A stretch of DNA of 64,000 nt from Escherichia coli. GTDB lineage: Bacteria > Pseudomonadota > Gammaproteobacteria > Enterobacterales > Enterobacteriaceae. The stretch lies in assembly GCF_003018255.1 (NCBI RefSeq), contig NZ_CP027440.1; one strand, 5' to 3'. The notes under the pieces were generated by a model that saw nothing but the letters and a program-made list of their open reading frames with translations, did no database searches and was not told the origin of the DNA. Numbering within the stretch: position 1 is the stretch's first letter; each line of letters opens with the position of its first letter. Positions 23,676 to 30,811 of the stretch are shown one piece after another. A program made the position numbers and the translations under genes.

Positions 23676-24281
23676 ATGACTATAAAAAATCTACCTGCCG
23701 ACTATTTATTGGCTGCGCAACAGGGTGATATCGATAAAGTAAAAACCTGCCTTGCGCTGGGTGTCGATATTAATACCTGCGATCGTCAGGGGAAAACGGC
23801 AATTACGCTGGCAAGTTTATATCAGCAATATGCTTGCGTTCAGGCATTAATTGATGCCGGAGCGGATATTAATAAGCAAGATCATACCTGTTTAAATCCT
23901 TTTTTAATTAGCTGTCTGAACGATGATTTAACGCTACTACGAATTATTTTACCGGCTAAACCCGATCTTAATTGCGTCACCCGTTTTGGCGGTGTCGGCC
24001 TGACGCCTGCCTGTGAAAAAGGCCATTTAAATATTGTAAAAGAGCTTTTGGCGCATACGGAGATTAACGTTAACCAGACCAACCATGTTGGCTGGACGCC
24101 GCTACTGGAAGCGATTGTGCTTAATGATGGCGGGATTAAACAGCAGGCGATTGTCCAGTTATTGCTGGAACACGGTGCCAGCCCGCACATGACGGATAAA
24201 TATGGCAAAACGCCGCTGGAACTGGCGCGGGAACGAGGCTTTGAAGAGATTGCGCAGTTACTGATTGCCGCAGGTGCATAA
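23676..24281 (+). CDS. yahD: ankyrin-repeat protein
   Basis: 201-aa ORF with repeated ankyrin-like 33-residue units (G.TPL..A...GH...V..LL..GA). Confidence 0.8.
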   Translation: MTIKNLPADYLLAAQQGDIDKVKTCLALGVDINTCDRQGKTAITLASLYQQYACVQALIDAGADINKQDHTCLNPFLISCLNDDLTLLRIILPAKPDLNCVTRFGGVGLTPACEKGHLNIVKELLAHTEINVNQTNHVGWTPLLEAIVLNDGGIKQQAIVQLLLEHGASPHMTDKYGKTPLELARERGFEEIAQLLIAAGA

Positions 24282-24320
24282 ACCGGGAGGCTTGCTATCA
24301 ACACACCAGAAAGACGGTGT

Positions 24321-25184
24321 GTGTGGGCGCTAACTGCGGATGCTGATTTTCTGGCGCAGCGGGGGCAAGGACAGGTTGAACAGGTCTTTGCCAGAGCGGT
24401 AAATATCGCACTTCCGGCCCGCCAGCAGTTGCTGACGCTGCTTTGTGAAGAGTACGACAATGCGCCAAACAGTTGTCGGTTGGCACTCACTCACTTTGAT
24501 GGTCTGTTCCGGCATGGTGATAAGGTTCAGTTTGACGATCAAGGCATTACGGTTGGTCAACATCTTCATATAGAGATGAGTCGTTGTCGGCGTTGGCTGT
24601 CCCCAACCTTGCAAATGGCCGCTGTGAATTTTCACCTTATCGCCTGGCAACAGTGGCATGACATTATTCATCAGCACCTGGGGGAAAATGAAACCCTGTT
24701 TAATTATTGCGGCGATAATCCGTTTTATCAGGCGTTAAATAAAGAATTACATATTAAACGACGGGCAGTTATTCAGGCCGTAAACGATAAACAAAATATC
24801 GCCTCAGCAGTCGCCAGTATGATGGGCTTAGGGATTGGCCTTACGCCATCAGCCGACGATTATTTAACAGGTCTGGCGCTTATTTTATTTATTTCCGGAC
24901 ATCCGGCGGAAAAATACAAAGAGGAATTTTATCTCGGTCTGCAATGCGGCAGAAATAATACCACGTTATTAAGTGCCATAACGCTGGAAGCCGCATTACA
25001 ACAACGCTGCCGGGAAAATATTCATCGTTTTATTCATAACATTATTTATGACATCCCTGGGAACGCAACTCAGGCAATAGAAAAAATTAAACATATTGGC
25101 TCCAGTTCCGGCTGCGACATGCTGTATGGCATGGCCGATGGTTGTGCGCTGAGCCAAACCTACGGAGGGAATTATGTCAGTTAA
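24321..25184 (+). CDS. yahE: DUF2877-family protein
   Basis: 287-aa ORF; position and order within the yahDEFG-yahIJ cluster. Confidence 0.7.
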   Translation: MWALTADADFLAQRGQGQVEQVFARAVNIALPARQQLLTLLCEEYDNAPNSCRLALTHFDGLFRHGDKVQFDDQGITVGQHLHIEMSRCRRWLSPTLQMAAVNFHLIAWQQWHDIIHQHLGENETLFNYCGDNPFYQALNKELHIKRRAVIQAVNDKQNIASAVASMMGLGIGLTPSADDYLTGLALILFISGHPAEKYKEEFYLGLQCGRNNTTLLSAITLEAALQQRCRENIHRFIHNIIYDIPGNATQAIEKIKHIGSSSGCDMLYGMADGCALSQTYGGNYVS

Positions 25185-28468: not shown

Positions 28469-29419
28469 ATGAAAGAACTTGTGGTCGTTGCCATTGGTGG
28501 CAACAGCATTATCAAAGATAACGCCAGCCAGTCGATTGAGCATCAGGCGGAGGCGGTGAAAGCCGTCGCCGATACGGTGCTGGAAATGCTGGCTTCCGAT
28601 TACGACATTGTGCTGACCCACGGTAACGGGCCGCAGGTCGGGCTGGATTTACGCCGCGCGGAGATTGCTCACGAGCGCGAAGGGCTGCCCTTAACGCCGC
28701 TGGCAAACTGTGTGGCGGATACGCAAGGTGGCATTGGCTATCTGATCCAGCAGGCGCTGAACAACCGGCTGGCCCGCCACGGCGAGAAAAAAGCCGTCAC
28801 CGTGGTGACTCAGGTGGAAGTGGATAAAAACGATCCGGGATTTGCCCATCCCACCAAGCCTATCGGCGTATTCTTCAGTGAAAGCCAGCGTGACGAATTA
28901 CAAAAGGCAAACCCTGACTGGCGTTTTGTTGAAGATGCCGGACGGGGCTATCGCCGCGTGGTCGCCTCGCCGGAACCGCAACGTATTGTAGAAGCACCTG
29001 CCATTAAGGCCCTGATCCAACAAGGCTTTGTGGTGATTGGCGCGGGCGGCGGCGGAATTCCTGTGGTGTGCAGTGAAGCGGGAGATTACCAAAGCGTGGA
29101 CGCGGTTATCGACAAAGATCTCTCTACCGCGCTATTGGCCCGTGAAATTCACGCCGACATTCTGGTAATTACCACCGGCGTCGAAAAAGTGTGTATTCAC
29201 TTTGGCAAACCGCAGCAGCAGGCGCTGGATCGGGTGGATATTGCCACCATGACCCGCTATATGCAGGAAGGGCATTTCCCACCCGGCAGCATGTTGCCAA
29301 AAATCATCGCCAGCCTGACGTTCCTGGAGCAGGGCGGTAAAGAAGTGATTATCACCACGCCGGAATGCCTGCCTGCGGCGCTGCGTGGTGAAACGGGCAC
29401 CCATATTATTAAAACGTAA
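28469..29419 (+). CDS. yahI: carbamate kinase-like protein
   Basis: 316-aa ORF with carbamate kinase / amino acid kinase fold motifs (VVAIGGNSI..., GAGGGGIPV). Confidence 0.85.
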   Translation: MKELVVVAIGGNSIIKDNASQSIEHQAEAVKAVADTVLEMLASDYDIVLTHGNGPQVGLDLRRAEIAHEREGLPLTPLANCVADTQGGIGYLIQQALNNRLARHGEKKAVTVVTQVEVDKNDPGFAHPTKPIGVFFSESQRDELQKANPDWRFVEDAGRGYRRVVASPEPQRIVEAPAIKALIQQGFVVIGAGGGGIPVVCSEAGDYQSVDAVIDKDLSTALLAREIHADILVITTGVEKVCIHFGKPQQQALDRVDIATMTRYMQEGHFPPGSMLPKIIASLTFLEQGGKEVIITTPECLPAALRGETGTHIIKT

Positions 29420-29428
29420 GGACGTAAG

Positions 29429-30811
29429 ATGAAAGAAAACAATAGCCGCCGTGAGTTTCTGAGCCAGAGCGGTAAGATGGTCACCGCCGCCGCGCTGTTT
29501 GGTACCTCTGTGCCGCTCGCCCATGCGGCAGTCTCTGGCACAATCCATTGCGACGCGAATAACACCATGAAAATCACTGACCCGCACTACTATCTCGACA
29601 ACGTGTTGCTGGAAACCGGTTTTGACTACGAAAATGGCGTGGCGGTGCAGACCCGCACGGCGCGCCAGACTGTGGAAATTCAGAACGGCAAAATTGTTGC
29701 CCTGCGCGAGAACAATCAGCATCCGGACGCCACGCTGCCGCACTATGACGCTGGCGGTAAGCTGATGCTGCCCACCACCCGCGACATGCATATTCATCTC
29801 GACAAAACCTTCTATGGCGGGCCGTGGCGCTCGCTCAATCGTCCGGCAGGCACCACCATCCAGGACATGATCAAACTCGAGCAGAAAATGCTGCCGGAGT
29901 TGCAACCGTACACTCAGGAAAGGGCGGAAAAACTGATTGATTTATTGCAGTCGAAAGGCACTACCATTGCCCGCAGCCACTGCAATATCGAACCGGTTTC
30001 CGGCCTGAAAAATCTGCAAAATTTGCAGGCGGTTCTGGCGCGACGTCAGGCGGGCTTCGAGTGTGAAATTGTCGCCTTCCCGCAGCACGGTTTGCTGCTG
30101 TCGAAATCAGAACCCTTAATGCGCGAAGCGATGCAGGCGGGGGCGCATTACGTCGGCGGGCTGGACCCGACCAGTGTTGATGGCGCGATGGAAAAATCCC
30201 TCGACACCATGTTCCAGATTGCGCTGGACTACGACAAAGGCGTCGATATTCACCTGCACGAAACCACTCCGGCAGGCGTGGCAGCCATCAATTATATGGT
30301 TGAAACGGTAGAGAAAACGCCACAGCTGAAGGGCAAGCTGACCATCAGCCACGCCTTCGCGCTGGCAACGCTCAACGAACAACAGGTAGATGAACTGGCG
30401 CACCGGATGGCGGCGCAGCAAATTTCTATCGCCTCGACGGTGCCGATTGGCACGCTACATATGCCGCTCAAACAGTTGCACGACAAAGGCGTAAAAGTGA
30501 TGACTGGCACCGACAGCGTTATCGACCACTGGTCGCCTTACGGCCTGGGCGACATGCTGGAAAAAGCCAATCTGTACGCGCAGCTCTATATTCGCCCTAA
30601 CGAACAGAATTTGTCCCGTTCGCTGTTTTTAGCCACTGGCGATGTATTGCCGCTGAATGAAAAAGGCGAGCGCGTGTGGCCCAAAGCGCAGGATGACGCC
30701 AGTTTTGTGCTGGTGGACGCCTCCTGTTCCGCCGAGGCGGTGGCGCGTATCTCGCCGAGAACGGCGACGTTCCATAAAGGGCAACTGGTGTGGGGGAGTG
30801 TGGCAGGTTGA
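29429..30811 (+). CDS. yahJ: amidohydrolase-superfamily deaminase with twin-arginine (Tat) signal peptide
   Basis: 460-aa ORF; N-terminus SRREFLSQSGKMVTAAALFGTSVPLAHA fits the Tat consensus; metal-binding HxH motif (HIHLD). Confidence 0.85.
   Translation: MKENNSRREFLSQSGKMVTAAALFGTSVPLAHAAVSGTIHCDANNTMKITDPHYYLDNVLLETGFDYENGVAVQTRTARQTVEIQNGKIVALRENNQHPDATLPHYDAGGKLMLPTTRDMHIHLDKTFYGGPWRSLNRPAGTTIQDMIKLEQKMLPELQPYTQERAEKLIDLLQSKGTTIARSHCNIEPVSGLKNLQNLQAVLARRQAGFECEIVAFPQHGLLLSKSEPLMREAMQAGAHYVGGLDPTSVDGAMEKSLDTMFQIALDYDKGVDIHLHETTPAGVAAINYMVETVEKTPQLKGKLTISHAFALATLNEQQVDELAHRMAAQQISIASTVPIGTLHMPLKQLHDKGVKVMTGTDSVIDHWSPYGLGDMLEKANLYAQLYIRPNEQNLSRSLFLATGDVLPLNEKGERVWPKAQDDASFVLVDASCSAEAVARISPRTATFHKGQLVWGSVAG

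Follow-up and report, generated by a model that had tools for sequence, protein, structure and literature searches.

The yahD-yahJ cluster of Escherichia coli lies at positions 23676-30811 of the DNA analysed here, a window of 64,000 nt in whose coordinates all positions are given. It holds six intact genes on the plus strand, yahD, yahE, yahF, yahG, yahI and yahJ, each equal in length to its counterpart in K-12 MG1655, and the interval is 99.6% identical to that of E. coli JNE23-011, whose genes bear the yah names. The first gene, yahD (23676-24281), encodes an ankyrin-repeat protein of 201 amino acids (aa) without a signal peptide. After 39 nt it is followed by yahE (24321-25184, GTG start, 287 aa), which encodes a DUF2877/AllH-family subunit, yahF (25174-26721, 515 aa), which encodes an FdrA/AllF-family subunit with a fold like that of the alpha subunit of succinyl-CoA synthetase (SCS-alpha), and yahG (26721-28139, 472 aa), which encodes a DUF1116/AllG-family subunit. 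The product of yahI (28469-29419, 316 aa) is a paralogue of carbamate kinase, and that of yahJ (29429-30811, 460 aa), which begins 9 nt further on, is an amidohydrolase of the CodA/AtzC type with a signal for twin-arginine translocation (Tat), the signal peptide being encoded at about 29429-29527. The families that had been named for these genes in an earlier reading of the same DNA (the original prediction), ankyrin, DUF2877, FdrA-like, DUF1116, carbamate kinase and amidohydrolase, were all reproduced. The statement that several of the genes have overlapping start and stop codons was slightly overstated: overlaps are present at two junctions, of 11 nt between yahE and yahF and of 1 nt between yahF and yahG (TGATG), the yahF stop codon lying on the yahG start.

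The 329 nt between yahG and yahI are mostly occupied by an unstranded array of repetitive extragenic palindromic sequences and bacterial interspersed mosaic elements (REP/BIME; 28153-28419), the former 'yahH', in which a 93-nt unit occurs in 2.9 copies with 92% matches. Upstream of the cluster, on the minus strand, are yahB (21897-22829), encoding a LysR-type regulator that is the probable activator of the yahD operon, and yahC (22921-23418), annotated as encoding a small membrane protein of the DUF1097 family. An unstranded dyad of the T-N11-A type, TTGTTGAA-N5-TTCAACAA, at 23552-23572, 124 nt upstream of yahD, is a candidate YahB box.

The genes and their family names were already known, and their paralogy with the enzymes of allantoin degradation is partly visible in RefSeq names. 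In comparisons with K-12 proteins, YahF is 38% identical to FdrA/AllF (E = 9e-102), YahG 45% to YlbE/AllG (E = 4e-120), YahE 25% to YlbF/AllH (E = 1e-10), YahI 38% to YbcF/AllK (E = 3e-57) and YahB 38% to AllS (E = 6e-73). By these alignments the paralogy goes far beyond chance, and the parallel that had been drawn between the FdrA/DUF1116/DUF2877/carbamate kinase set and the fdrA-ylbE-ylbF genes of the allantoin region is real. The link of the latter to oxamate carbamoyl transfer also holds. AllFGH was shown experimentally in 2024 to be an oxamate carbamoyltransferase, for which all three genes are needed; it catalyzes the reversible reaction oxalurate + Pi <-> carbamoyl phosphate + oxamate, and the assay was run in the direction of synthesis (PMC11326118). 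AllK is a catabolic carbamate kinase (PMC9843812). No oxamate was formed by ΔallF or ΔallG mutants of MG1655, in which yahEFG is intact, while a ΔallH mutant still formed 1.2 mM (PMC11326118, Table 1). That YahE might partly stand in for AllH in the latter strain is pure speculation. The yah genes are mentioned neither in this paper nor in its 2025 follow-up.

YahF matches the profile NF004760 'FdrA' with 492 bits (cut-off 433) and the FdrA structure PDB 3DMY at 1.4e-82, and its RefSeq label is 'acyl-CoA synthetase FdrA'. In the alignment with the SCS-alpha of Aeropyrum pernix (2yv2), the GHAGA phosphohistidine loop falls in a gap in YahF, and FdrA has non-matching sequence at the same position. 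Because this loop is missing, the name 'acyl-CoA synthetase' is unsupported, and YahF appears not to be a CoA ligase in the classical sense. Orthologues of YahG carry PF06545 (AllG) and those of YahE carry PF11392 (AllH). Homology links residues 2-53 of YahG to the last 52 residues of FdrA/AllF, so that the boundary between the F and G genes has shifted. Such a shift would be expected only for two proteins that work as a single enzyme, as F and G therefore presumably do; the yahE/yahF and yahF/yahG overlaps also treat them as a unit. A very close DUF1116 homologue of YahG is on deposit as PDB 3CLQ, an 'uncharacterized protein' (E = 2.5e-196 over residues 58-463), and a structure of the G-subunit family is thus already available without functional annotation. 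YahE is the least conserved member of the cluster, at 30-60% identity, and its confident structure model matched no solved relative. YahI scores 643 bits against the carbamate kinase profile PRK12352 (cut-off 266) and 345.3 bits against the stricter arcC equivalog TIGR00746, just under the cut-off of 358.25. Judged by all three subunit families, YahEFG would be a carbamoyltransferase of the AllFGH type.

The distribution of the cluster was surveyed with YahJ as query and one genome per species, giving 80 loci (L009-L088), each scored for all cluster proteins, of which 69 had enough upstream sequence to be judged. The most frequent layout, found in 32 of the 69, is yahB-yahD-yahE-yahF-yahG-X-yahI-yahJ, in which X encodes a 515-aa transporter; a further 13 have the same order without yahE. 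Ten loci are of the Escherichia type, with yahC and without X, and one cluster is degraded. Another five consist of yahB-yahD-yahJ only, and yahJ stands alone in the remaining eight. In Leclercia adecarboxylata NCTC13032 (L086) the cluster appears partly degraded, the matches to yahF, the transporter gene and yahI covering 24-65% of the queries; its yahG and yahJ are full length.

When the transporter was followed into other phyla, further gene sets were recovered. In Brevibacillus a gene for a PucR regulator is followed by genes for the ankyrin protein (Ank), the AllH-type (H), F and G subunits, an NCS1 permease, carbamate kinase (CK), a deaminase of the cytidine deaminase (CDA) fold and X. 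Bosea has PucR, then X, a fusion of ankyrin and tetratricopeptide repeats (Ank-TPR), H-F-G-CK and an adjacent relative of YahJ without a signal. The order is Ank-H-F-G-X-CK-LysR in Janthinobacterium, and X followed by Ank-H-F-G-CK-LysR and a Tat-YahJ in Pasteurella. Cytobacillus and Photobacterium have Ank-TPR, H, F, G and X with no CK gene nearby. YahG is 69-79% identical to the proteins of these six genera, compared with 45% to AllG, and YahF 60-72%, compared with 38% to AllF. These values indicate that the yah set is an old, tightly conserved group of orthologues, and not a recent duplicate of the all set. Its conservation across phyla implies a substrate of its own, presumably a conserved one. 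The relationship to AllFGH does not appear to be the orthology that would imply the same substrate, and that of YahEFG is probably not oxalurate. A separate specificity fits the lack of oxamate in the ΔallF and ΔallG strains despite their intact yahEFG.

A second module, flanked by insertion sequences (IS), with the content LysR-Ank-AllH-FdrA-YlbE-transporter-carbamate kinase and without yahJ, was found in 142 of 5426 complete E. coli genomes, at 107 plasmid and 46 chromosomal places; poultry is the source of many of the strains listed. Examples are an IncF plasmid (L096, 3168-11601) and the chromosome of strain 104 (L097). The G protein of this module is 90% identical to YahG.

The product of X is a polytopic membrane protein encoded between yahG and yahI in most genera. 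At this position in Aeromonas it had been considered as a diverged YahE; the 515-aa protein is a transporter and that idea was rejected. It is 83-88% identical from Aeromonas to Proteus and 65-88% identical across Proteobacteria and Bacillales. Searches of Pfam and NCBIfam gave no family match, only one of 18 homologues touches PF00860, and no relation to the NCS2 protein YbbY emerged from a comparison of profiles. An AlphaFold (AF2) model (predicted local distance difference test score, pLDDT, 83) has the 7+7-helix fold of UraA, SVCT1, SLC26 and AZG, with a template-modelling (TM) score of about 0.5-0.6. On this model a nucleobase-like substrate and an organic anion are equally possible. Homologues (L005, 7300-8847; P0121-P0240) are variously named 'xanthine permease', 'SulP family anion transporter' and 'regulator' in the databases; the first of these names is weakly supported.

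X is absent from all ten Escherichia-type loci and no remnant of it was detectable in the window, where the REP/BIME array occupies the position that the transporter gene has in most other genera. The E. coli copy of the pathway may be impaired by this loss. Conversely, yahC occurs only in the ten Escherichia-type clusters and is absent from all 46 clusters with X. The transporter-less layout with yahC is also found in Pseudocitrobacter, Kluyvera, Raoultella and Klebsiella, and the mutual exclusion probably goes back to one event, in the ancestor from which the Escherichia, Kluyvera and Raoultella versions descend; for that reason it is weak evidence for a functional replacement of X by YahC. 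An open reading frame (ORF) within the array, 28165-28437, is annotated in RefSeq as a 'hypothetical protein' and corresponds to K-12 yahH, which has been described as 'filled with REP23 sites' (PMC11551758). Ribosome footprints across the yahG-yahI gap have been reported in enterohaemorrhagic E. coli (EHEC) (PMC4765031). With the region as query, 118,061 places were matched in genomes of E. coli. The copy number of the array differs from strain to strain, the matches being 7136, 7053 and about 6950 nt long. At least 3257 of the 5426 complete E. coli genomes have the region in one uninterrupted piece, and in most of the others it is split only at the array. An apparent absence of the cluster from 40% of the genomes was rejected, as it reflects megablast matches that are merely split there.

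YahJ scores 716 bits against the amidohydrolase profile PRK06846 (cut-off 447). The closest solved structures are of the AtzC type (6nbo, 3.9e-44; 2qt3, 3.3e-30), followed by cytosine deaminase. Aligned with the CodA encoded in the window (48528-49826), it keeps HxH, Gln156, His214, Glu217, His246 and Asp313, and with these the metal ligands and the catalytic Gln, Glu, His and Asp that AtzC and CodA share. It differs from both in an identity of only 25-29%, a Tat signal, an N-terminal extension of about 50 residues, the replacement of Asp314 by Ser and the loss of a 13-residue loop between beta7 and beta8. Because of the last two differences YahJ is not an orthologue of cytosine deaminase, and the NCBIfam models for that enzyme fall far below their cut-offs. 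Its residues are those of a competent aminohydrolase, which would act on a cytosine- or ammelide-like amidine.

CodA, a cytosine deaminase, and AtzC, the N-isopropylammelide isopropylaminohydrolase, are cytoplasmic, whereas YahJ carries an export signal. Its N-terminus is MKENNSRREFLSQSGKMVTAAALFGTSVPLAHA, followed by AV, and within it lie the motif, the hydrophobic stretch and the AxA cleavage site of a Tat signal (SRREFLS...AAALFGTSVPLAHA, then A). The motif RRxF[LI], a hydrophobic stretch and a site of the A-x-A type are present in all 79 readable N-termini of orthologues, while the first mature residues vary freely. Pasteurella and Shinella YahJ also have the twin-arginine signal, although the Shinella orthologue matches the Tat model TIGR01409 only with E = 0.0035. 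YahJ appears on published lists of predicted Tat substrates (PMC7549933, PMC3027627), and the conservation of the motif supports the export that the original prediction proposed. A ΔyahJ mutant of extraintestinal pathogenic E. coli (ExPEC) had a small competitive defect in mice, with a competitive index (CI) of 0.70 and p = 0.02 (PMC7549933).

The same prediction regarded a Tat-exported deaminase next to cytoplasmic enzymes as unusual. The arrangement is there, and comparison with other genomes accounts for it, since YahJ appears to be a modular and separable front-end feeder that is cytoplasmic, of another fold or absent elsewhere. Tat-YahJ stands alongside F-G-I in 56 of the 69 usable Enterobacterales/Aeromonas loci and in Pasteurella. 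Bosea has the signal-less, cytoplasmic relative, and in Brevibacillus the CDA-fold deaminase takes its place. Clusters with no feeder occur in Janthinobacterium and in the IS-flanked island of the 142 E. coli genomes, from which it follows that the imported compound itself must be the substrate of F-G-H. The converse also exists. In Cedecea, Erwinia, Pluralibacter and others yahB-yahD-yahJ occurs alone, with the yahD stop overlapping the yahJ start; solitary yahJ is seen in Xenorhabdus and Shewanella, and Shinella pairs YahJ with an X-family transporter without F-G. The persistence of yahJ alone or with yahB-yahD would be explained if YahJ converts an amino analogue outside the cell and releases ammonia.

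Related clusters place other hydrolases in the same company. On a Peptoclostridium replicon, genes for PucR, two X-like permeases and a cysteine hydrolase of the isochorismatase type come before H-F-G-CK; biuret and triuret hydrolases, RutB and N-carbamoylsarcosine amidase are of the same family as this hydrolase. The tkt1 island of avian pathogenic E. coli (APEC) is similarly arranged (PMC3349570). On the Aminobacter plasmid pSR8, F-G is followed by a ring-opening amidohydrolase of the AtzD/barbiturase type, CK and an AtzC-like gene, and then by an ABC transporter and H. In nitrifiers, a metagenomic study found allFGHK adjoining genes for biuret and triuret hydrolases (PMC12625717). The atzC cassette of pTC1, pADP-1 and other plasmids consists of a truncated yahG-like gene, 59% identical in its product to YahG residues 304-470, a carbamate kinase gene, whose product is 47% identical to YahI, and atzC, in the same order as yahG-yahI-yahJ. 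Common to the enzymes of all these sister clusters is that they form or act on N-acylureas that end in a carbamoyl group, as oxalurate does. The carbamate kinase gene precedes atzC on all atrazine plasmids found, and the truncated yahG-like gene is present on most. The atzC segment (pTC1, L101, 9986-12782; pADP-1, NC_004956.1, 70219-72721) is at least 99% identical across Paenarthrobacter, Pseudomonas, Agrobacterium and Aminobacter.

YahD, whose ankyrin repeats were matched by profile search, has orthologues in the same cluster at 56% identity in Brevibacillus and 69% in Janthinobacterium, and its counterpart is an Ank-TPR fusion in Bosea, Cytobacillus and Photobacterium. By these comparisons it is a core member of the yah-type group. 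A role as a YahJ-specific Tat chaperone or inhibitor was considered and is unlikely, as YahD orthologues are found in clusters without YahJ. Because it occurs both with YahJ alone and with H-F-G alone, YahD is neither a YahJ-specific chaperone nor a simple transferase subunit.

The best NCBIfam matches of YahB are AllS (268 bits) and PunR, and yahB is divergent from yahD in nearly all orthologous clusters. The dyad, which was read directly from the sequence, has conserved half-sites and a spacer that varies freely; it lies about 120-170 nt before yahD in Escherichia, Citrobacter, Serratia, Buttiauxella, Providencia and Aeromonas and in the minimal clusters of Cedecea and Erwinia. YahB probably acts at the E. 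coli copy, 23552-23572. Scans for promoters and terminators found no more sites than in shuffled sequence and none upstream of yahD; the latter result fits an activator-dependent promoter and is uninformative.

Taken as a whole, the original prediction of an uncharacterised pathway feeding carbamoyl phosphate, with a periplasmic deaminase step, is supported, and the comparative data refine it. What is new is the orthology across phyla, the lack of the transporter in E. coli, the ankyrin protein as a core partner, the modularity of the deaminase, the shifted F/G boundary, the conserved operator-like dyad and the connection to atzC. On balance we favour a reading in which yahD-yahJ is a catabolic operon that follows the logic of the arginine deiminase pathway with unrelated enzymes, and which probably harvests nitrogen and ATP from a urea-like compound. 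From the observed homologies, conserved gene sets, signal motif and catalytic residues we infer a flux direction, an order of steps and a substrate class. YahJ would be exported by the Tat system in a folded, metal-loaded state and, in the periplasm, would strip a cytosine- or ammelide-like amidine of an amino or alkylamino group by hydrolysis, yielding ammonia and a ureide of the N-acylurea type. The ureide would enter by way of the dedicated 515-aa transporter in most genera and by another route, possibly YahC, in E. coli. The AllFGH-type carbamoyltransferase YahE-YahF-YahG would then use phosphate to split off the terminal carbamoyl group as carbamoyl phosphate, and YahI would transfer the phosphate to ADP, forming ATP, NH3 and CO2. 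YahB, as an AllS-like LysR regulator, would switch the operon on from the dyad upstream of yahD, and YahD would serve as a conserved protein-interaction partner. A purine or pyrimidine derivative is compatible with this scheme as the substrate.

The closest known system, AllFGH with AllK, likewise has FdrA-like, DUF1116 and DUF2877 proteins and a carbamate kinase in one operon with an AllS-type LysR regulator. It differs in its order, F-G-H-K compared with H-F-G(-X)-K in yah, and in having in AllF the 52-residue segment that sits in YahG. The yah type adds the ankyrin protein, the deaminase and, outside the Escherichia lineage, the transporter, and it has no upstream allantoin enzymes. The arginine and agmatine deiminase pathways consist of a deiminase, a catabolic transcarbamylase, a carbamate kinase and an antiporter. 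They share with the proposed scheme the conversion of C=NH/NH2 to C=O, of a ureide to carbamoyl phosphate, the substrate-level formation of ATP and a dedicated transporter; the kinase alone is homologous. The yah deaminase is of the amidohydrolase superfamily or the CDA fold, in contrast to the guanidino-modifying enzyme of the deiminase pathways; the yah transferase is of the AllFGH type, and theirs has the aspartate/ornithine transcarbamylase (ATCase/OTCase) fold. The first yah step is also proposed to be periplasmic in gammaproteobacteria, unlike theirs. The ygeW-yqeA region of E. coli has an orphan carbamoyltransferase, YgeW, a carbamate kinase paralogue, YqeA, and amidohydrolases; YgeW has the classical transcarbamylase fold and the region lacks FdrA, DUF1116 and DUF2877 proteins. 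It is mentioned in the AllFGH paper (PMC11326118).

The families shared by the two clusters, together with the AllS-like regulator of each, could also mean that yah redundantly duplicates the oxalurate branch of allantoin degradation and acts on oxalurate itself. This is improbable given the identities of only 25-45% to the all proteins against 60-79% to orthologues in other phyla, the different F/G domain boundary, and the ankyrin protein, transporter and deaminase of the yah type, none of which is in the all operon; an active oxalurate copy would also be at odds with the lack of oxamate in ΔallF and ΔallG strains of MG1655, where yahEFG is intact. Still less probable is a synthetic direction, or an acyl-CoA synthetase activity of YahF, by which the cluster would build or activate a carbamoylated or acylated metabolite. 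The RefSeq name of YahF and the reversibility of the AllFGH reaction, which was assayed synthetically, speak for it, but the phosphohistidine loop that defines SCS-alpha is absent from YahF, and the partners of the transferase, which are catabolic regulators (PucR and AllS-like LysR), uptake transporters, hydrolases and carbamate kinase, are the signature of ATP-yielding ureide breakdown.

The modular behaviour of YahJ raises the possibility of two unrelated modules that lie side by side and share no pathway, a periplasmic, nitrogen-scavenging deaminase with its ankyrin protein (yahB-yahD-yahJ) and, inserted within it, a cytoplasmic carbamoyltransferase and kinase (yahEFGI). Both halves are found apart, as yahB-yahD-yahJ with overlapping yahD and yahJ in Cedecea, Erwinia, Pluralibacter and others, as solitary yahJ in Xenorhabdus and Shewanella, and as H-F-G-transporter-CK clusters without a deaminase. 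We nevertheless regard this as unlikely. Three kinds of deaminase recur beside F-G-CK in distant phyla, a case of non-orthologous displacement, and the order G-CK-amidohydrolase is kept in the atzC cassette and the Aminobacter cluster. Shinella YahJ pairs with an X-family transporter even where F-G is missing, YahD accompanies both halves, and full and minimal clusters alike have the conserved dyad upstream of yahD. Nearly the same small likelihood, perhaps a shade less, attaches to the view that the Escherichia operon is a decaying, silent remnant, disabled when the transporter was lost and replaced by a REP array. The ten Escherichia-type loci without a transporter, the lack of any remnant of its gene in the window, the array that fills the gap, the partly degraded cluster of Leclercia adecarboxylata and decades of K-12 work in which no function was found all agree with decay. 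It is harder to reconcile with six ORFs of full length here and in K-12, a region that is contiguous in at least 3257 of 5426 complete genomes and in most others split only at the REP array, the persistence of the transporter-less yahC layout in Pseudocitrobacter, Kluyvera, Raoultella and Klebsiella, the EHEC ribosome footprints across the yahG-yahI gap (PMC4765031) and the competitive defect of the ExPEC ΔyahJ mutant in mice (CI 0.70, p = 0.02; PMC7549933).

Several points weigh against the catabolic scheme itself. The yah-type cluster has no ring-opening enzyme, and a cyclic product of the kind made by CodA or AtzC is therefore no obvious carbamoyl donor; the alternatives are an acyclic ureide, a spontaneous opening of the ring, or a transferase whose chemistry has not been described. 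YahE is missing from 13 full clusters, though AllFGH reaches its full activity only with AllH. Thirteen of the 69 usable loci have YahJ but no YahFGI, five of them with yahB-yahD and eight with yahJ alone, so that YahJ must have a function of its own. The score of E. coli YahJ against TIGR01409, 13.9 bits, is below the cut-off of 16.7. In E. coli, which has no transporter, the operon may not be active, or uptake may go by another route, and the failure of yahEFG to replace allFG could reflect a lack of expression and not specificity. The searched literature holds no functional study of the cluster and no biochemical or genetic datum on the yah proteins that bears on a pathway, and a 2024 y-ome survey still ranks the cluster as uncharacterised (PMC11551758).

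A wider version of the catabolic reading, which we put forward only tentatively, is that the yah type represents a distinct, phylum-spanning and ATP-yielding ureide pathway, that YahJ pre-processes an amino analogue of the ureide outside the cell, and that an ancestral cluster of this kind was the source of atzC. Common natural ureides that could be its substrates are, for example, acylureas of the biuret, triuret or allophanate type, malonurate, or allantoin- or hydantoin-like compounds. In a bolder form, the transferase would phosphorolyse a cyclic acylurea open and YahI would harvest an N-substituted carbamoyl phosphate.

The neighbourhood of the cluster in the window differs from that in K-12. 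Between yahJ and yahK, at 31107-36204, lie a gene for an ASCH-domain protein and a four-gene ABC transporter of the sugar/AI-2-like kind, a block that K-12 does not have; 2213 of 5426 complete E. coli genomes carry at least 80% of it. No evidence was found that ties it to the yah operon. Further along are codB and codA (47240-49826); CodA, at 25% identity, is the sole other YahJ-like protein in the window. An indel between yahJ and codB offsets the window by about 80-100 nt relative to JNE23-011 by the point at which codB is reached.

If the catabolic reading is true, it would give a role to eight adjacent 'y' genes of K-12 and a second substrate to the AllFGH class, which would then be a general device for turning ureides into carbamoyl phosphate and ATP, served by exchangeable feeders. 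Citrobacter, Enterobacter, Providencia and Brevibacillus, which have kept the transporter, would be better experimental hosts than K-12. The comparisons delimit a transporter family not described before and an ankyrin partner that is conserved among bacteria, and they suggest an origin for atzC. The fitness effect of yahJ in ExPEC and the mobile, plasmid-borne module in E. coli from poultry and humans hint that the pathway has relevance to life in the host.

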